This document shows, piece by piece, positions 10,821 through 52,758 of a stretch of 52,758 nt of DNA. The notes under the pieces are model-generated. The model did not search any database, was not told the origin of the DNA, and worked only from the letters and a program-made list of their open reading frames with translations. This DNA is from an uncultured Gammaproteobacteria bacterium (GTDB taxonomy: Bacteria; Patescibacteriota; Microgenomatia; Levybacterales; UBA12049), in contig CAZZCX010000005.1 of the NCBI GenBank assembly GCA_964653195.1, positions 17,829 through 70,586 on the forward strand, given 5' to 3'. Within the stretch, counting starts at the first letter, position 1; each line of letters begins with the position of its first letter. The position numbers were made by a program, and so were the translations under genes.

Positions 10821-11495
10821 ATGAAAGTATTAGTTATCGAGGATGAGCATAAAATAGCACAGTCTATAAAAAGGGGACTTGAGTCGGAAAATTTTATTGT
10901 TGATATCGCGTTTGACGGTACAACAGGACTTGACCTCGCATTAGCTGAAGAATACGATGCGATAATTCTTGATCGGCTTTTGCCAGGAGTAGATGGTATT
11001 ACTATAGCCAAAAATTTAAGGAAAAACTTTAATCACACACCTATACTAATGCTTACAGCGAAAGAGCAGATTGAAGATAGGGTAGAAGGATTAGATTCGG
11101 GTGCAGATGATTATTTGTCAAAACCCTTTGCATTTTCAGAATTGGTTGCAAGAATTCGTGCTTTAATCAGAAGGCCAAAGGAATTTAAGAATCCTGTTTT
11201 GACAATCGGTGATTTATCTTTACATACTCAGACTTATGAAGTAAAAAGGTCAGGAAAAAGTATAAATCTAACATCTAAAGAATACTCACTTTTAGAATAC
11301 CTCATGAGAAACAAAGAAAAAATAATTACCAAGGATCAAATTATAAATCACGTTTGGAGTTATGATGATGATGTATTGCCAAATACAGTAGAGGTGTGGA
11401 TACTTCATCTGCGTAAAAAAATTGATAAAGCATTTCCGCACAATAAGCCATTGATTCACACTGTAAGAGGATTCGGATACAAGATCGTAAAATAA
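10821..11495 (+). CDS. OmpR/PhoB-family response regulator
   Basis: Receiver domain (VLVIEDE...ILDRLLPGVDG...LTAK) plus winged-helix output (TVRGFGYKI). Confidence 0.9.
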   Translation: MKVLVIEDEHKIAQSIKRGLESENFIVDIAFDGTTGLDLALAEEYDAIILDRLLPGVDGITIAKNLRKNFNHTPILMLTAKEQIEDRVEGLDSGADDYLSKPFAFSELVARIRALIRRPKEFKNPVLTIGDLSLHTQTYEVKRSGKSINLTSKEYSLLEYLMRNKEKIITKDQIINHVWSYDDDVLPNTVEVWILHLRKKIDKAFPHNKPLIHTVRGFGYKIVK

Positions 11496-12661: not shown

Positions 12662-12721
12662 TATTCTTGGAGCAAAGTGTGAAGTTATAGGGTGTATAGT
12701 TCTCATATAATTCGAACAATA
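12662..12721 (+). repeat. A-family palindromic MITE-like element, copy A1
   Basis: TATTCTTGGA...GTGAAGTTA...TAGTTCTCA...TCGAACAATA. Its ends are near-inverted repeats of each other. Confidence 0.7.
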
Positions 12722-13379: not shown

Positions 13380-13404
13380 TAATTATTAATTATCCATTTT
13401 ATAT

Positions 13405-14623: not shown

Positions 14624-14629
14624 TGGTAA

Positions 14630-14735
14630 TATTCTTCGAGCGAAGCGAGAAGTAAACAGCAGTAGTTCTCATTTCATTCGAACAATAAATACTATTCTTC
14701 GAAGCGTGAAGCGCTGAGAAGTAAAGTGCAATAAT
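14630..14735 (+). repeat. A-family elements A2a (14630-14687) and truncated A2b (14693-14735)
   Basis: TATTCTTCGAgcgaagcGAGAAGTAAacagcagTAGTTCTCAtttcaTTCGAACAATA followed by a second, truncated unit that ends at the GIY-YIG ATG. Confidence 0.85.
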
Positions 14736-14993
14736 ATGCCCAAGAGATGGAAGTGGTACGTATATATTTTAGAGTGCTTAGATGGATTTTACTATACAGG
14801 TATTACTTGGAATTTAGATTTAAGAATGGAACAACATAAAAGCGGGATTGGTAGTAATTTTACTAAAAAACATGGATTTAAAAAGCTTCGTTATTTTGAG
14901 GAATTTTTTGATTTAATACAAGCAAGAGAAAGAGAAATTCAACTTAAGGACTATAGTAGAAAGAAAAAAGAAGCTTTATTTTTAAGGCAATAG
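14736..14993 (+). CDS. GIY-YIG nuclease superfamily protein (small, stand-alone)
   Basis: WYVYILECLDGFYYTGITWNLDLRMEQHKSG...FTKKH carries the GIY/YIG-type beta-hairpin motifs plus a conserved Arg and Glu region. Confidence 0.85.
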   Translation: MPKRWKWYVYILECLDGFYYTGITWNLDLRMEQHKSGIGSNFTKKHGFKKLRYFEEFFDLIQAREREIQLKDYSRKKKEALFLRQ

Positions 14994-14998
14994 GAATA

Positions 14999-15127
14999 TA
15001 TTCTTCGAGCGAAGCGAGAAGTAACCAGCAGTAGTTCTCATTTCATTCGCACAATAAATACCATTCTTCGAGCCAAGCGAGAAGTAGTGAGAAGTTAATA
15101 ATTAGTTCTTGTTTTACTCGAACAATA
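14999..15127 (+). repeat. A-family elements A3a (14999-15056) and A3b (15062-15127)
   Basis: A3a is nearly identical to A2a (58 nt, 2 differences). A3b resembles the reverse complement of copy A5. Confidence 0.85.
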
Positions 15128-15517: not shown

Positions 15518-15910
15518 CTACTGAACTGGTGGGAGGTTAAGGTGTTTCTCGATTCGTTTTATTCTTTCATTATGTAGTTCATATCCTCCCTCAATAAGCT
15601 CAGTAAGTGCTTCTATCGTTTCTTGTTGAGAAATTTCAATTCTTTGCTCAAGACTTCTATGTACTTTATCTACTTTACTATTTATCGTTTCAACTTTTAA
15701 TTCTAGAGTTTTTTGTCTATCTTCTACATTACCAAGTCTATCTTCTACATTACCAAGTCTATCTTCTACATTACCAAGTCTATCTTCTACATTACCCAAG
15801 CGACTTTTTACCTCGCCCAAGTCTTGTTTGATTGGTTTAAGTTTTTGATCAAGTTTTTCATCAATCATTTCACCAATTTGTTGTAGTAGTTGTTTGTTAT
15901 CCATGATCAT
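15518..15910 (-). CDS. Coiled-coil protein with (LGNVEDR)x4 tandem repeat, hypothetical
   Basis: A 21-nt unit gtctatcttctacattaccaa occurs four times (15715-15798 on the + strand). The stop is 4 nt upstream of the msrB start. Confidence 0.7.
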   Translation of the reverse strand: MIMDNKQLLQQIGEMIDEKLDQKLKPIKQDLGEVKSRLGNVEDRLGNVEDRLGNVEDRLGNVEDRQKTLELKVETINSKVDKVHRSLEQRIEISQQETIEALTELIEGGYELHNERIKRIEKHLNLPPVQ

Positions 15911-16065
15911 ATACTACACATCGTGAAGTGAGTTTTCAATATAACAAAACATATTAATTTGTGTAAGTGTAAATTTACCGAGGTGTCTTATCGGGGATAC
16001 CTCTAAGATTTGCTACAAGTTAGTTGTTGTGAATTGATATATTATTTATAATATAGACTTAAGGT

Positions 16066-16698
16066 ATGGGAAAAGAAAAAGAGAAATCAGGAGGAGAACA
16101 GGATAAATTTAATATTTTGGCAGCTGCGAGAGATTTTGTGAATTCACTTCCAGACTATGAAGGCGATATTATTGAGCAGGCTGAAGCTATAGCTGCGAGA
16201 GTAGAGTTAAGGGATTTAATGGATAGAATGGGAGATAAGTTTGCAGAATATCTGAAGCAATATCCCGATCTTATAAAGGGGACAGCTTCTGTTTTTGCAT
16301 TGCCTTATTTAGATGCGCTTGATACCTTGGATGAAGAATTTGAGGTAAGAATGACAGAAGCAGAAGGTGAGGATCCGGATAGATTAAGGGATATTAAAAG
16401 AGAAAAGCAGTTAAGATACAATGACACAGCTTTAGAGGCATTAGGTACAGGTGTTGCATTGCTACGGGCAGGTAATCAATGGTCAAGGTTGCCTGGTGGT
16501 GAGCAGCTTACAAAACCGAGTCCTTTTGAAATAAGCACCGTTTTTATACATGTAGTTTCAGAGCGCTTAGGTGATCAGCAGATGGCAGCTCCTATCGGTT
16601 GGGATTTGTTGGTAAACGGTATGTTTGGGGTTACAGGGGTAAGCGTAGATCAAAGCATCAGAGATACCAGAGCTTATCTAAAAGGTTCTGATAAATAA
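16066..16698 (+). CDS. Acidic cytosolic orphan protein (210 aa)
   Basis: Clean ORF with TATAAT and AAGG upstream. No TM segment, no signal peptide, no recognisable motif. Confidence 0.6.
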   Translation: MGKEKEKSGGEQDKFNILAAARDFVNSLPDYEGDIIEQAEAIAARVELRDLMDRMGDKFAEYLKQYPDLIKGTASVFALPYLDALDTLDEEFEVRMTEAEGEDPDRLRDIKREKQLRYNDTALEALGTGVALLRAGNQWSRLPGGEQLTKPSPFEISTVFIHVVSERLGDQQMAAPIGWDLLVNGMFGVTGVSVDQSIRDTRAYLKGSDK

Positions 16699-16913
16699 AT
16701 ATCAATTCATAAGAGGATAGCCTTCAGATGTTTAAAAAAGCATGGGTAAGGTATGCTTTAGAGATTTGTCTCCCAAAGATTACTCTTTAGGAGACTCCTC
16801 ACCCACACTTTCCTAAACATCTAATTTTAATAATTCCTATTTGTACTTTCTATCGAGAAAGTACCAAAGCTTGAGAGCTAGTGAGAGTCGACCGGTTTTG
16901 TTTCGTTCTCTCC

Positions 16914-16979
16914 TCGGGGAATTGTCCACCCCTTTCCTTCACTCTCCGCCTTGGGCGGATCGAAAGGGATTTCCCCTGA
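16914..16979. repeat. C-family 66-nt conserved core, copy C1
   Basis: TCGGGGAATTGTCCACCCCTTTCCTTCACTCTCCGCCTTGGGCGGATCGAAAGGGATTTCCCCTGA. About 88% identical to 17524-17589, with nested stems. Confidence 0.8.
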
Positions 16980-17074
16980 GTCGTTCACGTCACAAAACTA
17001 TTTCGGTCTTTGTCTCAACGCTCGCATTTTAGCTTCGTTCAAAGCTCACAATAATTTAAATTGTTAATTACTTT

Positions 17075-17122
17075 TATTGTTCGAACAAAGCGAGAACTAC
17101 TTCTTACTTCATTTGAAGAATA
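17075..17122 (-). repeat. A-family element, copy A4 (reverse orientation, shortened)
   Basis: TATTGTTCGAACAAAGCGAGAACTACTTCTTACTTCATTTGAAGAATA is the reverse complement of the A consensus. Confidence 0.7.
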
Positions 17123-17135
17123 AATTTGTAAGGGT

Positions 17136-17160
17136 GCGGGCTGGTTTTTGACCAGCCCGC
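17136..17160. terminator. Perfect 10-bp GC-rich hairpin (terminator-like)
   Basis: gcgggctggt-ttttg-accagcccgc, followed by tatttaatt on the + strand. It lies 3' of the minus-strand 38-aa ORF. Confidence 0.45.
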
Positions 17161-17214
17161 TATTTAATTGTAGGTAAGTTTTACCATTGTCGGGCGCATT
17201 TGCCCGACTTTGGC

Positions 17215-17331
17215 TTATTTACCTTTCGGCCTTCTGGAGTTCCAGAAGGCCAGAGCTGCTGCTGTAAAAAGCAGCCCGAATCCAAGCAAAGTCAACCCGT
17301 TGCACATAAAATATTCTGGTGCCGGCATCAT
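17215..17331 (-). CDS. 38-aa hydrophobic peptide (single TM plus basic tail), hypothetical
   Basis: Minus strand: AGGAGtgaaATGATG... encodes MMPAPEYFMCNGLTLLGFGLLFTAAALAFWNSRRPKGK*. SD AGGAG is 4 nt upstream. Below the 60-aa cutoff of the ORF track. Confidence 0.35.
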   Translation of the reverse strand: MMPAPEYFMCNGLTLLGFGLLFTAAALAFWNSRRPKGK

Positions 17332-17523
17332 TTCACTCCTGTCAAATATTCTCCAAAATTGGAGGGGAGGATAGAGACGAGTTTCGTCTGTATCTTCCTC
17401 CCAATTTGTGAGTTGACTGATTTATTAAATTGTTAAGTTGCTAATGTATTTGTTCTTTTGTGTGTACAAAAGAACCAAAAAACTTGCGCGCTTGAAGTCA
17501 GGCTATTTTACTCAGTTCGCTAG

Positions 17524-17589
17524 TCGGGGGATTGTCCGCCCCCTTCCTTCACTCACCACCCTGGGCGGTTCGAAAGGGATTCCCCCTGA
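17524..17589. repeat. C-family 66-nt conserved core, copy C2
   Basis: TCGGGGGATTGTCCGCCCCCTTCCTTCACTCACCACCCTGGGCGGTTCGAAAGGGATTCCCCCTGA. Confidence 0.8.
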
Positions 17590-17920
17590 CAGCTCACTTC
17601 GTAAAATTTAACGCCTTTTATTCACAGCGCTAAATTGATTTAATAAAATGTTAATTTGCTAAGAAATTTGTAGTCACAATTCAGAAGTTAAAAAGAGCTT
17701 TAACTGCTCAATCGTAACTACGGGCGCTTATGTGGTAAGCGCCCGAGTGTTGAAAGCGCAATTGCTTTCAAACTTGGGACGCTTTAAGTATAAGCGCCCG
17801 TCATCCGAAATCAGCTGAGAATTCACCATTTCAGCGCAAAAGCTTTGTGGTAAAAACTCTACCTCTTCGGAAGCCTCTTCTTAAGGTGAGAGAATACCTT
17901 TTTTAGTCTGTTTTCTTTTT

Positions 17921-17976
17921 GTCACCCTGAATTTATTTCAGGGTCTCCTGAGATGCTGAAACAAGTTCAGCATGAC
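17921..17976. repeat. P-family double-hairpin palindromic element, copy P2
   Basis: GTCACCCTGAATTTATTTCAGGGTC-tcctga-GATGCTGAAACAAGTTCAGCATGAC. Confidence 0.85.
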
Positions 17977-18212
17977 AGGTTCGAAAACGAACCGTTTCCT
18001 GTGAGTCACCATTAGACTCCTTGGTATCCAGCTAAGCTGGACAGGAATTTCGTTCCGATTGCTCGGAACTCTATTCAGCCTTATTCAAGCTGAATAGGCG
18101 GGGGAGAGACCCGCCGGATCCGGACTAAGAACATCCAGGTATCCGACGGGCTCCCGCCCGGCTAACCTCCGGTCAAACCCTTATGGGCGGACCAGAGGCC
18201 AATAGTAGAAGG

Positions 18213-19250
18213 TTACTTCCAGTCGACCGGCCGCAGATCGGCCGGCTTGGCGGATTGTTCCACCATCCGAATTTCCTCGGCAGGGGGGTCCCACTGGACC
18301 CACCCGGACACCTCGCAGCGAACGCCGGAAGTGTCCTGGTACCACATTCTGATGTGGTAATCGGGTATCGCGAGCAGCTCGATAGGGTTGCTGTCCCAGA
18401 TCTCGCTGCCGGTATCCGGCCAGGGGTAAACACCGGTCAGGCTGTATGTTTTGGCGACCGGCAAGTAGTGATACTGGTCAGCCGCACGGCTGACCGCCCA
18501 ATCCACGTCGCGGCTGGCCGTTAGCGACAGAGGCACGCCGGGCCCCCAGATCCCGAAATCGTACTCCGCACCCGGCCAAGGCTGAAAGTCCAGCGTGGCG
18601 TTTTGCCCGGCCATGGAGGCGCTGAGGGTCTCGCGCTCGCACACCGCGGGGGGCGGGGGCGGCAGGGGCTGGCCGATCGCCAACGGAAGATAAGCTTTAA
18701 ACTCGACGGGCTGGCCGGGGCACTCGTAATCAGCCCAGAGGCCGATGGAATCTTCCGTACGGAAGGTCAAGATACCCTCTTCGGGCACCTCGAGAACACC
18801 GTAGGAAACCATCCCTTGAGGCACGGCGTGGAGCAACTGCCCGTTTAAGTAGAAGCCGCTCATGCGTTCATCGACGTCGTCGTCGATGATAGTGTACCCC
18901 ACTGTGCAGCCGGCTTTATCAAAGACGCTGATCGTCCACTCGTCGTCGTTTATGTGAACCGGGCGAGTGGTTCCTTCCTCCACCGCCCATACGCGCTCGT
19001 TCTTCTTCGCTTGGTACTCCGGGCCTTCCCGAAGCACCATATCGAGTGGCCTCGCCTTCACGACGAAGTCGCCGGACTCATTATTGAACGTCCCCGGGCC
19101 CTCGCCCAGAAACGTAACTTCGGGCATTTCCGGCACTGAGCTTGCGCCAGCGCCGAAGACGAAGTCGACACTCAGCCTGCATACGAGCAGACCGAGCAGG
19201 ACGGCGATGGTGATCCATAACGCCTTCCGGTTAATCTCTGTGTTACTCAC
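18213..19250 (-). CDS. GC-rich (about 60%) membrane-anchored extracytoplasmic orphan protein, compositionally foreign
   Basis: Longest frame in the GC-rich core, with G/C-dominated third codon positions. SD AAGGAG (complement of 19259-19264) lies 8 nt upstream of GTG (19250). The N-terminus (M)SNTEINRKALWITIAVLLGLLVC is a signal anchor, and a PLPPPPPA linker separates two Trp/Asp-rich domains. The track ORF extends to TTG 19412. Confidence 0.6.
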   Translation of the reverse strand: MSNTEINRKALWITIAVLLGLLVCRLSVDFVFGAGASSVPEMPEVTFLGEGPGTFNNESGDFVVKARPLDMVLREGPEYQAKKNERVWAVEEGTTRPVHINDDEWTISVFDKAGCTVGYTIIDDDVDERMSGFYLNGQLLHAVPQGMVSYGVLEVPEEGILTFRTEDSIGLWADYECPGQPVEFKAYLPLAIGQPLPPPPPAVCERETLSASMAGQNATLDFQPWPGAEYDFGIWGPGVPLSLTASRDVDWAVSRAADQYHYLPVAKTYSLTGVYPWPDTGSEIWDSNPIELLAIPDYHIRMWYQDTSGVRCEVSGWVQWDPPAEEIRMVEQSAKPADLRPVDWK

Positions 19251-19916
19251 TTTCGTGTCTCCTTGTGCCCGGTTTTGCCGGGCGTAGTCGTGTTTGCCCG
19301 CCAAGTGCAGAAAGCGCGGCGGGCGCTCGTTAAGAAACCAATAAAGGTTTAGTGCCACTGTGAGGTGGCTCAGTACGACAATAAGCACGTATAAAACGCG
19401 CTCACCTTCCAATTTTGACGTAAACCCGTGTATTCAGGGGAGTACGTATTCACCGGAAGCCTTTCAAATACAAATTTTCTTTATTCTTGAATCTTACATC
19501 TTGAATCTTGATTCTTTTGTACTCATAAGGCTCCCGGCAAAGTACCGGAAGTTCGATTTAGGAGAATCAATGCTTGCCCCACTTCGTCCCGATCTAATCG
19601 GGACTGCGAGGGGTAAATAACCTTCTATTATTATTAAAGAGCAAATTTGCGTAGAGCTAAGAGCTTAGGGCATAGAGCACTAAGAATAAAACAATACGAA
19701 TTCCTTCACCGATCAGTTCGCATTACTGCGGAACCTAGAACCAGTTTGAAGCTAAATAGCCTCAGACTGTCCCGCCTGCAACGCATGCTTGCATTGCGGG
19801 CAGGTGGCGTCAGGAAGAGAAGAGGAGAGTGCGATTCATCTTAATTCGTGAATCTTAAATCTTAAATCTATGTTAAGATCTCCTCTTTCTCTTCCGTACA
19901 CCAAAATGCATCAATT

Positions 19917-19987
19917 TATTGTTCGATCCCGATCAGATCGGGTGAGAACTAATTAACTTCTCACCGCTTAAGGCGGTTCGAAGAATA
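19917..19987 (-). repeat. A-family element, copy A5 (reverse orientation)
   Basis: TATTGTTCGA-tcccgatcagatcggg-TGAGAACTAattaaCTTCTCAccgcttaaggcggTTCGAAGAATA. Confidence 0.75.
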
Positions 19988-20009
19988 TTAACTTTAAAAT
20001 GTGCTTCTT

Positions 20010-20080
20010 ACCCGCCTAATCTTACTTTTCGCCTTACCTACTATTCGTAGCGTGGCTCAAAGAGCGATTGAGCGGCGGGT
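20010..20080 (+). repeat. B-family structured element, copy B2
   Basis: ACCCGCCTAAtcttacttttcgccttacCTACTATTCGTAgcgtggctCAAAGAGCGaTTGAgCGGCGGGT. Confidence 0.7.
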
Positions 20081-20123
20081 TATGCATTTCTAAGCCTCGC
20101 TTTTTGGCTCGGCAAGAATTGCA

Positions 20124-20153
20124 TAAAAAAACCCGCACTTTAAAGGTGCGGGT
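20124..20153 (-). terminator. Intrinsic terminator (minus strand)
   Basis: Hairpin acccgcac-tttaaag-gtgcgggt (20131-20153). On the minus strand it is followed by a T7 run (complement of the A7 at 20124-20130). Confidence 0.6.
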
Positions 20154-20300
20154 TGAAAATTCAATCCGAATCCAGGATAGCCTGGTCTGCCTCTAAAGCT
20201 TGTGGAGTATACTATAAGTCTAGTAATTTGTCAAGTAGGGAAGGAGAGAATATGGATTTTAGTAAATGGCATATGGTAAATAGATAATAGACATATAGCT

Positions 20301-20328
20301 TAGGGCATAGGGCATAGGGCATAGGGCG
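20301..20328. repeat. Heptamer microsatellite (TAGGGCA)x3 plus TAGGGCG
   Basis: Tandem copies at 20301, 20308, 20315 and 20322. AGCTTAGGGCATAG also occurs once at about 19663. Confidence 0.9.
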
Positions 20329-20633
20329 TATGGTAGCAAGAAGCAGGTAGTATGTAGTAGGCAGTAGGTAGCAGTAATAAACAGTATGCAAAGAGGGATA
20401 ATAAGTAGTTATTATAAATTCCTATAGGATAATTATAGTTGCAAGGTGCAATAGGTGGGAGTTATGCTTTACCATTGAAGCTTCGAAGCTGATTTACCCC
20501 GGGGGTAGGTTAGCTTCGAACACCGGTAATACTTAAATTCCAATTTAAATTTACTGACCCCTAATCTCTGTTTCCTCGCCGAAGCTTAAGCGAAGGTGGG
20601 TTCCCGGGTCACTGACCCCAGAACCTTGATTTT

Positions 20634-22403
20634 TCATCCGAAGGTGAAGGCGTAGACTTCCATATTGTCATCTAGAAACTCCAGTTTTAGTATGTGCTGG
20701 CCTGCGATAGGCAAATTAATTAGCTTATAAAGCGTATCTTTTGTGACTGTGACTGTACCGTTTTTATTATCCTCTCCGAAATATTGGAGCTTTTCGTCTA
20801 TATACACTTTTACTTGGGATTCCGTTCCATCAGTTTTAGGTTTCATGACTAAGTAAACCTCTTTCGCTTTGAAATTAAGATACAGCTTAGATTCACTCAT
20901 TGGTGCTGCATATTTTTCCGCAATTAGCCACTTTCCTTCATAAGCTAGTTCTGAAGAAGAAATAGTTCTGGGGCGTAAATATGATGTGAGCTGATCTTTT
21001 ATTACTCCTTCAGGGGAAACGAATTTATCAATTCTCCAGTATCCGAGATATTTTTCAGGTGTACTGCCATAATTTTGGTATGTTGGATTATTGATGTCGA
21101 CTGCTGTAATTTTTGAGCCTGCTTCAGTTAATAATTCCTGGATCATTTTTTCAGTCTCATCATACGCACCTTCACCGAAATGGACATATCGGATAAAGCC
21201 GTCTATATCTATGAGATATTTGGCCGGCCAGTAATGGTTGTCATAAGCAAGCCAGGTAGCGAAATCGTTGTCCTGCATGATTGGATATTTGAGGCCGAAA
21301 TCACTAGCAGCCTCGCGGAGATTATCCAAATCCTTCTCAAATTCAAATTCAGGGGAATGGACTCCTATAATTGTAAGACCGTTATCTTTGTACTTTTCAT
21401 GCCAAGTGCGTAAATAAGGAAATGTACGCTGGCAATTGATACAGGAATACGTCCAGAAATCGATGAGAACAACTTTCCCCAATAAAGATTGGAGGACTTG
21501 CCCTTCCGTAGCCTCTGGCGAAGGAGGGTTCAACCATGATCCACCCGGTATTAATTCAGGAGCTTTTTTACCTTTCGGCTGAAGTTCAAAAAGCGGTTTA
21601 CCCATATCAGTAGTATCAGTTTTACGGCCATTTAACGTATTTAATGCGTCTTTTATCACGCCTATATCTTCAAAGTCAGTCAGATTGCTACCGTAATTGG
21701 GGAACGATGTCAGGATATACGTCTGGAATTTTCGATCAATATTGAAATATATCGCAGCTGCTGTGAGGATCATAATAAGCCCGAAGGCTTTTTGTATCAG
21801 TTGAGTGTTACTTAAAAGCCAGGGGATTTTTCTAAGCAGTTTCTGTCCGCCAAGCATGATCGCAAACATAGGTATCGCAGTACCCAGAGAATAGGAGAGT
21901 GTGATAATTAATGCGCTGAAATTTACCGTGCCTGTGATGGCCAAAGTTATAACTGATGCTAGAATTGGACCTACGCATGGAGTCCAAAGTAGACCAAGAG
22001 ATAAGCCGACAAGAAGGCCTGAGATAAATTTACTGTGCATATTTGCTTGTCCGGATTTTGAAGTGTTTACGGGTACGAAGCGTGACAGTTTGGAAAATAA
22101 CCTTTCAAGAAGAACTTGAAACTGTGGGATAAGAAGGGATATACCGAATGTGGCTATAACTAAAATTGAGAAAATTCTCAAAGAATCGGCAGGTATCCCG
22201 CTTATTTTGACTATGGTAGATAAAAAGAGTGTAAAGAAAGTGAAGCTTGTGATAAATCCGGTTATAACACCAAGTGGTCGAGATCTGCTTGCATCCTTAC
22301 CGCCGATAGTAGAAGAGAGTATGATTGGAAGTACAGGGAGAATGCAGGGGGAGAGGATAGTGACTATTCCTGCGATGAATGAGAAAAGAATTAGTAATAA
22401 CAT
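20634..22403 (-). CDS. DipZ-like fusion: CcdA/DsbD transmembrane thiol-disulfide transporter + TlpA/redoxin-like thioredoxin domain + C-terminal beta-rich domain
   Basis: TM-domain cysteines (ILSPCILPV, LWTPCVGPI), thioredoxin motif DFWTYSCINCQRT, and a C-terminal extension of about 150 aa. Confidence 0.8.
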   Translation of the reverse strand: MLLLILFSFIAGIVTILSPCILPVLPIILSSTIGGKDASRSRPLGVITGFITSFTFFTLFLSTIVKISGIPADSLRIFSILVIATFGISLLIPQFQVLLERLFSKLSRFVPVNTSKSGQANMHSKFISGLLVGLSLGLLWTPCVGPILASVITLAITGTVNFSALIITLSYSLGTAIPMFAIMLGGQKLLRKIPWLLSNTQLIQKAFGLIMILTAAAIYFNIDRKFQTYILTSFPNYGSNLTDFEDIGVIKDALNTLNGRKTDTTDMGKPLFELQPKGKKAPELIPGGSWLNPPSPEATEGQVLQSLLGKVVLIDFWTYSCINCQRTFPYLRTWHEKYKDNGLTIIGVHSPEFEFEKDLDNLREAASDFGLKYPIMQDNDFATWLAYDNHYWPAKYLIDIDGFIRYVHFGEGAYDETEKMIQELLTEAGSKITAVDINNPTYQNYGSTPEKYLGYWRIDKFVSPEGVIKDQLTSYLRPRTISSSELAYEGKWLIAEKYAAPMSESKLYLNFKAKEVYLVMKPKTDGTESQVKVYIDEKLQYFGEDNKNGTVTVTKDTLYKLINLPIAGQHILKLEFLDDNMEVYAFTFG

Positions 22404-23082: not shown

Positions 23083-23861
23083 CTAACCCCCGGGGTATAT
23101 TGACTTCGTACATCGGAACATATAATCTGAGAGTAAAATATATAATGCCACGCAGGAAAACAATCTTAGCTAATGGAGAATATTACCATGTTTTTAATAG
23201 AGGTGTAGCTAGTATACCTATATTTAAAAACCAATCCTCTTATAAAAGATTTATAAACTTAATTGATTATCTACAGTATGGAAATACACCTACTAGTTTT
23301 TCGAATTTTTTAAAACATTCGATTGCTGATAGGCAGGAGATTGTGACCAAATTGCAAATAGAGAATAGACAGCTCATAGAGATTATATCTTTTTGCCTTA
23401 TGCCTAATCATTATCATTTTGTTTTGTTGCAGAAAGTTGATAAGGGAATATCTAAATTTATTGCCAATCTTCAAAATAGTTATGGGAAATATTTTAACCT
23501 GAGATTCAAAAGAACTGGACCATTGGTCCAGCCATCATTTAAAGCTGTTAGGATTGAAACTAATGAACAATTATTGCATGTAACCAGATATATCCATCTA
23601 AATCCTATTACAAGTTTTTTGGTAAATGAAATTGAATTTTTAAGTTATGAATGGAGCTCATTGCCTGAATATATTACTAATATAAAGCGTTATTCTTTTA
23701 TAAATACCGATATTGTATTAGATATCCTTGATAGTGAACAGTATAAGGAATTTGTCTTTGATCAAATTAATTATCAGCAGGAATTACATAAGATTAGGCA
23801 TTTAATGCTTGAATAAAAGTTTGCGTACTGATGTTAGAAGCTATTTTACGCCGGGGGTTAG
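23083..23861 (+). mobile_element. RAYT unit: Y1 (HUH) transposase gene flanked by inverted GC-rich REP-like repeats
   Basis: Left TCTAACCCCCGG (23082-23093) and right CCGGGGGTTAGA (23851-23862) are exact 12-bp inverted repeats bracketing the CDS. Confidence 0.65.
23145..23816 (+). CDS. REP-associated tyrosine transposase (IS200-like Y1/HUH transposase family)
   Basis: YHVFNRGV...IF, HUH motif LMPNHYHFVL, and catalytic Tyr context TRYIHLNPI. Start trimmed to ATG 23145. Confidence 0.8.
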   Translation: MPRRKTILANGEYYHVFNRGVASIPIFKNQSSYKRFINLIDYLQYGNTPTSFSNFLKHSIADRQEIVTKLQIENRQLIEIISFCLMPNHYHFVLLQKVDKGISKFIANLQNSYGKYFNLRFKRTGPLVQPSFKAVRIETNEQLLHVTRYIHLNPITSFLVNEIEFLSYEWSSLPEYITNIKRYSFINTDIVLDILDSEQYKEFVFDQINYQQELHKIRHLMLE

Positions 23862-23874
23862 AGTTGATTTAATT

Positions 23875-52703: not shown

Positions 52704-52758
52704 TACTAAATACTAAATACTAAATACTAAATACTAAATACTAAATACTAAATACTAA
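52704..52758. repeat. Heptamer microsatellite (TACTAAA), at least 7.8 copies, running off the window edge
   Basis: Perfect tandem copies start at 52704, 57 nt after the htrA stop. Confidence 0.95.

Follow-up and report, generated by a model that had tools for sequence, protein, structure and literature searches.

The stretch of DNA analyzed here (52,758 nucleotides of contig CAZZCX010000005.1, hereafter the window) contains a gap of ~3.9 kb, at positions 16699-20633, that separates two convergent genes in a Patescibacteria chromosome with a guanine-plus-cytosine (GC) content of ~34%. This gap, which we refer to as the island, is probably a genuine and positionally stable slot of relaxed constraint that holds a foreign, hypervariable gene at its core, two copies of a folded repeat designated R1, and small palindromes together with a fragment similar to the beginning of an RNase P RNA gene. 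The reading draws on related strains, in which the same flanks bracket deeply diverged alleles of the core gene, and on the R1 copies, whose pairing is kept where the sequences of the helices differ. The ABC-F protein encoded in the window is 82% identical to that of the nearest metagenome-assembled genome (MAG) and 66-69% identical to those of MAGs labelled Gottesmanbacteria, Woesebacteria, and Patescibacteria group, and these identities place the window in a Microgenomates-type Patescibacteria chromosome. Contigs and MAGs used for comparison are cited by their L numbers, and the coordinates of the features are collected in Table 1.

The island and its counterparts in related strains

A sequence-only reading of the window had described a nearly gene-free island of hairpins and repeats with a core of foreign composition, and the outline of that description held up. 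Cover by open reading frames (ORFs; greedy, at least 80 aa) is 35.8% within 16699-20633 versus 90.0% outside, and the island contains the two longest ORF-free gaps in the window, of 1514 bp and 1013 bp. The rise in GC from about 35% to about 60% that had been placed at 18.1-19.4 kb appears as a plateau over 18101-19400 at 100-nt resolution, and the hand count of 34 of 60 given for 18181-18240 is exact. In 500-nt windows the GC fraction is 0.588, 0.624, and 0.530 over 18001-19500, compared with ~0.30-0.38 for most of the window; across 18048-19573, GC is 57.5% against a background of 34.5%. The composition changes abruptly at the edges of the core, and the non-coding flanks of the island around the core are also raised, to 42% GC versus 34.5% for the rest of the window.

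The hairpins are a real feature of the island, in smaller number than had been claimed. Perfect stems of at least 8 bp with a loop of 2-10 nt number 15, where ~0.6 would be expected from block-wise dinucleotide shuffles. Nine of these lie in 16699-18212 (0.2 ± 0.4 in shuffles), three in the core ORF (0.2), and three in 19413-20633 (0.2), while coding controls are without such enrichment (1 versus 0.6 and 4 versus 1.1 expected). The "dozens" of perfect stem-loops reported earlier are therefore an overstatement, as the island has 25 inverted-repeat pairs even when imperfect ones are counted. Four of the five hairpins that had been quoted are perfect (16843, 17136, 17228, and 17721), and the one at ~16769 has one mismatch (GTCTCCCAAAG versus CTTTAGGAGAC).

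One explanation for the abrupt change in composition is an assembly chimera, in which a high-GC fragment of another organism was joined to a low-GC contig via shared repeats, and the junction regions are indeed rich in repeats that occur in other genomes too. Comparison with syntenic regions of relatives, which the sequence-only reading had suggested, speaks against this explanation, since an island with a high-GC core was found in related strains. L001, a 24-kb Logan contig (SRR25722606) that was found through the core protein as an N-terminal relative at 93% identity, is collinear with the window from 29375 down to 17950. It aligns over 29375-19805 at 96.4%, over 19642-18660 at 95.3%, and over 18218-17950 at 85% identity, and both GC junctions are thus crossed. 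L031, L032, and L033 (from JGI, ENA, and Logan), reached through the left flanking protein, have a left flank 97.6% identical and a right flank 95.3% identical to those of the window, with a different high-GC gene between them. L086, a 2-kb contig from a further sample, has low-GC flanks around a high-GC core that carries yet another allele. Overall, the same flanks, with nucleotide identities of 79-97.6% around the alleles, bracket a high-GC core in assemblies that come from five or more samples and were made with three assembly pipelines, and the GC-rich stretch downstream of the core gene is contiguous with low-GC sequence in every allele. Because independent samples, independent assemblers, and different alleles share one site, an assembly artefact appears very unlikely. 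The same junctions recur in independent assemblies, which contradicts the chimera that the sequence-only reading had itself raised, and we give that explanation almost no credence.

A hypervariable gene of foreign composition

The suggestion that the island is a hotspot for foreign DNA is borne out by its core, where a coding gene of foreign composition is present as at least four, and probably five, deeply diverged alleles at one site in near-identical strains. Alleles were found in the window, L001, L031, L086, and L087. The first four lie demonstrably between the same low-GC flanks, and L087 is probably a fifth allele at the same site. The proteins are 32-57% identical between alleles (37-57% in their N-domains), and the C-domains are of at least three unrelated types, with the window and L086 sharing one, L031 and L087 another, and L001 having its own. 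The swap of the C-terminal module that sets the window apart from L001 has its limits at 18660, in a linker between the domains, and at 18218, at the stop codon.

The GTG start of the window allele was placed by alignment with the ATG starts of other alleles, and the start codon and ribosome-binding site were read from the sequence and the matching upstream stretch in L086 and L087. The protein consists of an N-terminal transmembrane helix, a conserved beta-sandwich N-domain, a Pro-rich linker, and a variable beta-sandwich C-domain. An AlphaFold2 model of the protein (mean predicted local distance difference test score, pLDDT, of 75.5) has a helix at residues 4-33, a beta-sandwich at 45-177 (pLDDT ~90), a disordered Pro-rich linker at 184-198, and a second beta-sandwich at 209-322. 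The family had no match among Pfam families and PDB sequences, and no description of the gene was found in the literature searched. Foldseek returned only weak and generic matches to beta-sandwiches of immunoglobulin-like domains, carbohydrate-binding modules, adhesins, and phage fibres. Going by the predicted fold only, the product may be a membrane-anchored surface protein with a role in binding or adhesion that is under diversifying selection.

The alleles have diverged far at silent positions as well. At conserved residues, 30-55% of the four-fold sites are identical between alleles, compared with a random expectation of 30-35%, and synonymous sites between alleles are nearly saturated. 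GC content at third codon positions (GC3) is nevertheless 0.72-0.82 in all five alleles (0.76 in the window), versus 0.25-0.37 in native genes. All 32 homologue loci found in metagenomes have a uniformly high GC content of 53-70%, and one of them is labelled activated sludge. A profile search with the N-domain identified one named relative, in a Candidatus Promineofilum (Chloroflexota) MAG at a locus of 69% GC, and other relatives on contigs of ~65% GC in the conserved context Phosphorylase-DUF1269-(TerB)-DUF308. Composition and relatives together indicate that the family is native to high-GC bacteria and that the gene is foreign to this genome.

The sequences on either side of the gene were also compared between alleles. 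The presumed 3' untranslated region, at 18048-18212, has identities of 76% (L031), 85% (L001), and 79% (L086), and the adjoining coding sequence is not alignable; GC reaches 66% over 18101-18200. The upstream region, 19251-19573, is not alignable to L031, in which homology restarts at 19574. Over the 34 nt that end at the start codon, identity to L087 is 91%; for L086 it is 88.6% over 19515-19602.

Origin of the alleles

The core gene was acquired horizontally and carries a GC-rich leader, a ribosome-binding site, and a downstream stretch of its own. We propose that alleles are swapped by homologous recombination, for which the flanks conserved between strains, the downstream stretch that the alleles share, and the Pro-rich linker would act as anchors. 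Since every allele keeps a GC3 of ~0.75 despite nearly saturated synonymous sites, the alleles would have diverged in a GC-rich regime, which favours an external reservoir, for example a high-GC donor or host, over divergence in place in an AT-rich genome. The process would then be one of repeated replacement from an unsampled external reservoir through the conserved flanks.

Several points weigh against this proposal. L087 is without a low-GC flank, so that its placement in a Patescibacteria genome is ambiguous. No high-GC genome was found with the same leader or downstream sequence, and nucleotide likeness to the high-GC homologues is confined to one conserved coding motif. Neither an integrase (sought among the neighbours of the island) nor a tRNA nor a direct-repeat boundary was found. 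The functional guess depends on a generic fold, for which whole-chain TM-scores are 0.1-0.2.

An alternative is that there was one ancient acquisition, followed by diversification in place at a recombination hotspot, with GC held high by GC-biased gene conversion or by a GC-preserving hypermutation. In a rough neighbour-joining tree of 139 columns, the alleles from Patescibacteria loci group together (90% bootstrap support) to the exclusion of the homologues of high-GC genomes, and this monophyly, which also weighs against our proposal, fits one old acquisition as well as it fits a single reservoir. The alleles share leader and downstream sequences that the high-GC homologues lack, the mosaic breakpoints differ between strain pairs, and the GC-rich tract coincides with the recombining tract. 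With only a single old acquisition, the lack of amelioration in GC3 would call for a different explanation. To raise GC3 to 0.72-0.82, or to hold it there, over a background of 0.25-0.37 through saturating synonymous change far exceeds the effects that gene conversion is known to have in bacteria. Moreover, no silent cassettes for the variable gene were found elsewhere in the 52.8-kb window, and the Pfam scan, which took in ~20 of the roughly 50 ORFs in the window, showed neither a reverse transcriptase nor a template repeat. We therefore regard a single ancient acquisition as quite unlikely and prefer repeated replacement from an outside reservoir.

The R1 repeat

The private two-copy family noted in the sequence-only reading (C1 and C2) is found at 16896-16979 and 17506-17589, with 82% identity between the copies. 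It is the apex of a larger unit of 175-195 nt, R1, of which the island holds two co-oriented copies ~600 bp apart, W1 and W2. In W1, a 5' hairpin, P1 (GTACTTTCT/AGAAAGTAC), precedes a long interrupted rod, at the apex of which TCGGGGAA is followed by CCCC, a hairpin, and TTTCCCCTGA. The architecture of the family is a 9-10-bp hairpin P1, then CCAAAA, then a long closing rod in which unpaired motifs are conserved (CUA, UUCACU, CUCACU, UUAACG, and CUUUGUU). At the apex, UCGGGGGA and a loop are followed by CCCC(C)U, a variable hairpin, and UCCCCCUGA, an arrangement in which a G-run has two competing C-runs. The predicted RNA folds are -66 kcal/mol for W1 (z = -4.1 versus shuffles) and -60.9 kcal/mol for W2 (z = -4.7 versus shuffles).

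The fold of R1 is supported by covariation, one of the checks that the sequence-only reading had called for. In an alignment fitted to a covariance model, which was built from a 14-copy seed alignment, 91.7% of cells are paired versus 35-52% in slid controls, and 36 of the 48 pairs are changed on both sides. The covariation score is 0.47, compared with ~0.06 in slid controls, and none of 500 shuffles reached it. MAFFT followed by RNAalifold on 36 copies recovered only the G/C helix of the apex, with the rods misaligned.

Comparison with L031 showed that the left arm of the island consists of tandem units in which the outer sequence is kept and the inner hairpin replaced, and in which helices differ in sequence with pairing kept. 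The L031 orthologue of W2 (11127-11314) has the rod and a different apical hairpin, a W1-like copy in L041 (4422-4603) likewise has the rod and a different apex, and W1 and W2 share the same long apex though their rods are only ~72% identical. The apical hairpin appears to behave as an exchangeable module. The W1 segment is replaced in L031, not cleanly absent, as the place of 16825-17418 is taken there by 336 bp, within which lie a palindromic element and an R1 in inverted orientation. A partial R1 occurs in L038, a relative of 74% identity, at the same position after the orthologous left gene as W1.

A search with a degenerate pattern gave 45 loci in species-representative genomes, ~34 of which are true members, and no match in viral contigs. 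Almost all members come from MAGs that bear the labels Levybacteria, Daviesbacteria, or Patescibacteria group, or from relatives with a wrong label, and several MAGs have more than one locus. The covariance model gave 54 matches in 555 kb of fetched loci, and two strong matches in the window. The sequence core of R1 is conserved across class- or phylum-level Microgenomates groups, and its copy number appears low, with the sampled loci suggesting a few to perhaps ten per genome. As a side observation, many of the MAGs titled "uncultured Gammaproteobacteria" or "Pseudomonadales" (third-party annotation, TPA, assemblies; L004-L027 and L041-L085) carry an ABC-F protein 60-82% identical to that of the window, and also R1; these titles are probably wrong.

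What R1 may be

R1 would be a DNA repeat that spreads now, or spread formerly, between intergenic sites, usually co-oriented with the upstream gene, and it would be retained since its folded single strand functions, most likely as the 3' end of the transcript of the upstream gene. Copies that are 100% identical, with sharp ends (TGTAC...GCTACCAA), stand between unrelated flanks of one MAG (L048 and L067), and identical copies at unrelated sites indicate recent spread at the DNA level. Copies elsewhere are 60-91% identical. The closing helix lies near the 3' end of R1, and the 5' end is a separate hairpin. The gene 5' of R1 is co-oriented with it in 35 cases versus 13; in the informative classes, where the neighbours disagree, R1 follows a gene in 14 cases and precedes one in 4. 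R1 often abuts the stop codon of the upstream gene. The orientation of R1 relative to the GC skew of its flanks is also biased (39 versus 12), a bias that is confounded with gene orientation. The neighbours are unrelated housekeeping genes, such as those for EF-Tu, aminoacyl-tRNA synthetases, enolase, SHMT, and Lon, and among 72 neighbouring proteins there is no recurrent gene family and no recurring transposase, reverse transcriptase, or integrase.

Other observations count against this proposal. In R1, G-U or U-G pairs number 49 versus 36 A-C or C-A mismatches, and in the rod helices the counts are 24 and 24; R1 pairing is Watson-Crick only, which is unusual for RNA and as expected of a DNA hairpin. 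No conserved promoter, with positioned -35 and -10 elements, was found upstream of 44 R1 copies, just a T-rich 8 nt, and no U-tract terminator was seen by eye after the closing helix. By-eye inspection of the flanks of the identical copies revealed no target-site duplication. Most R1 copies within a genome are just 60-75% identical, with the fold kept.

Rfam 15 at gathering thresholds gave no match in the window and thus no family for R1. Searches of 16000-21000 at E up to 5 gave only terminator-driven or chance matches, with edge overlaps of the 5' end of W1 at E = 1.3 and 4.8. No R1-like element was found described in the literature searched, and no repeat or non-coding RNA family for Patescibacteria was found there. 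Given the absence of G-U tolerance, of a promoter or terminator, and of an Rfam match, what is established for R1 is a structure and not a role as RNA, and R1 may act either as RNA or as single-stranded DNA. Thus, the sequence-only reading's cluster of structured RNAs is upheld as to a conserved, covarying fold in the two R1 copies and not as to their being RNA.

One alternative is that the R1 copies are independent sibling genes for small RNAs, which would make the island primarily a cluster of non-coding RNA genes. The strong covariation, the conserved unpaired nucleotides, and the stability of the folds are in line with this view, and the deeply diverged copies within a genome that keep their fold imply selection on each copy. 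Pyrimidine-pyrimidine mismatches outnumber purine-purine mismatches 89 to 24, an asymmetry that gives R1 a preferred strand. On the other side stand the lack of positionally conserved promoter elements and of a terminator, G-U pairs that are not in excess over A-C, the lack of an Rfam match, and the frequency with which R1 abuts an upstream stop codon, and we judge this alternative to be rather improbable.

A second alternative, which is possible if somewhat unlikely, is that R1 is a non-autonomous mobile element of folded single-stranded DNA moved in trans by an HUH/Y1 transposase, such as that encoded at 23145-23816. Watson-Crick-only pairing would be expected of such an element, and the identical copies with sharp boundaries between unrelated flanks, where no target duplication was seen by eye, would be its recent insertions. 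The T-rich 5' flank resembles a target preference, the copies cluster, and the Y1_Tnp gene of the window lies only 3.5 kb from the island. However, no R1 was found within 3 kb of Y1_Tnp homologues at ~29 Patescibacteria-type loci (34 sources, 193 kb), and the Y1_Tnp gene of the window has another inverted repeat, TCTAACCCCCGG/CCGGGGGTTAGA, on its two sides. The clusters include six tail-to-tail pairs, whose members are 60-72% identical, not above the between-locus mean of 67%; REPIN-like doublets were ruled out on these identities. Furthermore, most copies are old and diverged and yet constrained in structure, and the position of W1 is conserved in a relative that is just 74% identical.

Taking the evidence together, we place R1 beside the ERIC, Correia, and REP-type elements as a member of none of them; it is probably a dispersed folded repeat carried on the 3' ends of transcripts.

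Other features of the island and its surroundings

Table 1. Features of the island and its two flanking genes, with positions in the window.
Feature	Positions	Strand	Remarks
Left flanking gene, 210-aa hypothetical protein	16066-16698	+	From the ORF list; without Pfam match
R1 copy W1	16839-17036	+	Covariance-model match, 111 bits, E = 2.7e-21
Possible degenerate R1 remnant, tail-to-tail with W1	17061-17254	-	Weak match, 16.5 bits, E = 0.07
38-aa hydrophobic ORF, MMPAPEYFMCNGLTLLGFGLLFTAAALAFWNSRRPKGK	17215-17331	-	GGAG upstream; doubtful gene
R1 copy W2	17448-17643	+	Covariance-model match, 123 bits, E = 8e-24
Conserved non-coding hairpin block	17670-17903		Inverted repeats I1 and I15
Insertion of REP-like hairpins, 144 bp, strain-dependent	17904-18047		Absent in L031, L032, L033; present in L001, L086
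GC-rich, hairpin-rich stretch 3' of the foreign gene (presumed 3' untranslated region)	18048-18212	-	Common to alleles
Foreign high-GC coding sequence, 345 aa	18213-19250	-	GTG start after GGAGA; listed ORF extends to TTG at 19412
Upstream region of the foreign gene, GC-rich near the start, allele-specific	19251-19573	-	Hairpin GCCCGGCAAAACCGGGC directly before the ribosome-binding site
Right non-coding arm	19574-20633		Hairpins, palindromes, RNase P-like fragment
Hairpin	19574-19616		Right arm
Hairpin CCCGCCTGCAACGC..GCATTGCGGGCAGG	~19768-19808		Right arm
Palindromic element	19917-19990		Right arm, by eye
Terminator-like hairpin AACCCGCAC..GTGCGGGTT, then T7	20130-20154	-	Right arm
Palindrome	20482-20520		Right arm
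Right flanking gene, DsbD/thioredoxin-like membrane protein	20634-22403	-	Pfam DsbD_TM, AhpC-TSA, Thioredoxin_10

Besides R1, the island contains members of smaller repeat families, of which the sequence-only reading had listed four as common to the rest of the window. Two such families were confirmed, and the labels A4, A5, B2, and P2 could not be mapped to them one to one. A palindromic element (ATTsTTCGA..GAGAAC..CTTCTC..TCGAAsAAT) is present at 12663, 14631, 15000, 15063, and 17076, besides the copy in the right arm, and a hairpin (GTCAyCCTGAA..TTCAGGrTC) is present at 13399, 17915, and 22438. A short hairpin of the latter type (GTCAyyCTGAAc..TTCrGrATC) recurs in distant Patescibacteria MAGs, reads as a pseudo-ORF, MLKQVQHD, in the window, and lies directly 5' of R1 in four MAGs (L082, L071, L059, and L044).

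The hairpin block between W2 and the core is 90% identical to L031, and L086 and L031 are 93% identical there. Within it, 17720-17801 is a 38-nt imperfect inverted repeat in which CGGGCGCTTA/TAAGCGCCCG occurs twice around GTTGAAAGC/GCTTTCAAC. A 38-aa ORF that was called at this block in L035 was rejected, since a stop codon interrupts the window version and the ORF is not conserved. The adjacent 144-bp insertion is made up of the hairpins GTCACCCTGAA..TTCAGGGTC, CCTGAGATGCTGAA..TTCAGCATGACAGG, and GGTTCG..CGAACC. Its absence from L031, along with the replacement of the W1 segment in that strain, agrees with the repeat landing pad that the sequence-only reading had envisaged. The possible R1 remnant beside W1 overlaps a copy of the palindromic element (~17064-17125; the family D3 copy at 17076) and the GC-rich hairpins at 17136-17160, 17189-17208, and 17228-17251, and the segment is specific to the strain of the window. 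The 38-aa ORF in this strain-specific segment was not counted as a gene; it holds the perfect 11-bp hairpin 17228-17251.

From 19574, the right arm is ~95% identical to L031 and L001, equal to the flanking genes, and such conservation among close strains carries no information on constraint. At 97% identity, the 32 nt at 20028-20059 match a segment made up of the 24 nt ahead of a divergent RNase P RNA and its first 8 nt, in the Patescibacteria MAG L011 (1420-1935). By eye, the similarity extends to ~20080 and stops just short of the GGAAAGUCC motif, so that the sequence appears to be a remnant similar to the beginning of a gene for RNase P RNA. The RNA of L011 is itself identified only weakly (RF00010, 25 bits, E = 7e-6); this is far below the gathering score of 100, and RNase P RNAs of these lineages would therefore be missed at Rfam thresholds. 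The best promoter-like site of the region (TTGACA-17-TATACT, 11 of 12 matches, 20234-20206 on the minus strand) lies ~50 nt upstream of the terminator-like hairpin, and 20122-20234 on the minus strand could encode a small RNA of ~75 nt. Heptamer tandem repeats occur as four copies of CATAGGG at ~20299-20326, as related TTAGGGCATAGAGC motifs (19664-19690), and as TACTAAA running off the end of the window (52704-52758). The palindromes of the MITE-like and REP-like kinds and the RNase P-like fragment would mark the slot as a tolerated site of insertion.

For the protein encoded by the left flanking gene, homologues fall into just two clusters (95% and 74% identity), each on syntenic contigs, and no relative was found in species-representative genomes. 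The protein appears to be lineage-specific, and its gene faces the DsbD-like gene convergently across the island. The DsbD-like gene is syntenic in L001, L031, and L033. Other neighbours are ordinary chromosomal genes, including those for a two-component sensor kinase, an alpha/beta hydrolase, MsrB, thioredoxin, a P-type ATPase, ABC-F, an alpha-2-macroglobulin-like protein, CtpA, and HtrA, and a scan of the window for tRNA and tmRNA genes found none.

Three further loci in the window lie outside the island. The Y1_Tnp gene (IS200-like/RAYT-like, plus strand) is ~3.5 kb away and has homologues with 40-46% identity in many Microgenomates MAGs; the inverted repeat that brackets it is a perfect one of 12 bp, at 23083-23094 and 23852-23863. 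An 85-aa GIY-YIG ORF (14736-14993) is flanked by direct 74-nt copies of the palindromic element that are 96% identical (14629-14702 and 14998-15071), an arrangement that looks like a small mobile endonuclease cassette. Five tandem 21-nt repeats at 15694-15819 lie within a coiled-coil ORF (15518-15910, minus strand), the orthologues of which have called lengths of 130, 116, and 114 aa in the related strains, suggesting that the number of repeats varies between strains.

Comparison with known systems

The core locus resembles hypervariable surface-protein loci, in which strain-variable genes for adhesins or receptor-binding proteins, whose C-terminal domains are modular, are exchanged by homologous recombination. 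Like these, it occupies a fixed site and varies far beyond its flanks, and it is a mosaic with module swaps, one breakpoint of which falls at an inter-domain linker. As in such loci, small integrase-less islets among them, its composition is foreign and its product is predicted to be exposed at the surface. Unlike hypervariable surface-protein loci, it has alleles that have diverged almost to saturation at synonymous sites and still have a GC3 ~0.45 above the host genome. It also differs in that no silent cassettes were seen in the window, in that its host is a reduced-genome member of the Patescibacteria, and in that the family is without Pfam or PDB sequence annotation. When the locus is compared with a horizontally acquired islet, deviating composition and homologues of donor-like GC are present, whereas no integrase was found among the island's neighbours, no tRNA in the window, and no flanking direct repeats.

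R1 has much in common with the ERIC, Correia (NEMIS), BOX, and REP/BIME elements. It has the size of ~100-200 nt, the imperfect palindromes, and the strong fold of these elements, and it encodes no protein; it is intergenic beside unrelated genes, often co-oriented with the upstream gene, and sometimes clustered. In contrast to them, R1 is asymmetric, with a separate 5' hairpin, a rod with unpaired motifs, and the G-run and two C-runs of its apex. It numbers a few to perhaps ten copies per genome rather than hundreds, and its copies are old, diverged, and covarying. With the palindromes of REP/REPIN-RAYT systems and those derived from IS200/IS605, R1 shares hairpin-forming DNA with Watson-Crick-only conservation and no target-site duplication seen by eye. 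The nearby Y1 (HUH) transposase gene and the short GTCAyCCTGAA..TTCAGGrTC hairpins of the island are also reminiscent of REP/REPIN-RAYT systems. R1, however, does not flank Y1_Tnp genes, its pairs are not near-identical inverted doublets, and it is about five times longer than REP.

A third comparison is with the attC sites of integrons and integrase-less attC clusters. As in attC sites, structure is kept over sequence in R1, a one-strand function is plausible, and the apex is variable, and the two co-oriented copies in the window are arranged as they might be in an attC cluster. The differences are that R1 has no RYYYAAC/GTTRRRY core sites by eye, that no integrase is among the 72 neighbours, and that tail-to-tail pairs are common. 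The sites of attC are 57-141 nt in length, and R1 is longer.

Significance

Part of the island is mundane, being a tolerated insertion slot between convergent genes that is full of small repeats, and neither a hypervariable gene that never ameliorates nor the R1 family is categorically new in kind. A bolder joint reading, which we consider unlikely, is that R1 is a new functional class of folded nucleic acid, specific to Microgenomates-type bacteria and with a role outside the known types of RNA and mobile repeat, and that the high-GC gene is imported repeatedly from a high-GC partner, for example the Chloroflexota host of an epibiont.

R1 is a well-supported structured element of many Microgenomates-type MAGs that is missing from current catalogues of RNAs and repeats, and annotation pipelines otherwise leave it as blank intergenic DNA. 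The core gene bears on a different aspect of the biology of these bacteria. Patescibacteria genomes are roughly 1 Mb in size and tightly packed, and the hosts of these bacteria are mostly not identified. Because near-identical strains carry very different and compositionally foreign versions of a predicted surface protein, the locus is a natural candidate for a determinant of host attachment or a phage receptor. The failure of GC3 to drift to the host value despite near-saturation means that ordinary amelioration is insufficient as an account, and a live external reservoir or an unusual local process would be needed. The composition of the donor (~60-70% GC, with relatives in activated-sludge Chloroflexota) provides a testable lead to the partner organism. 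If the gene is indeed imported repeatedly from a high-GC partner, the core gene would be a genomic marker of host association and of gene flow from host to symbiont.

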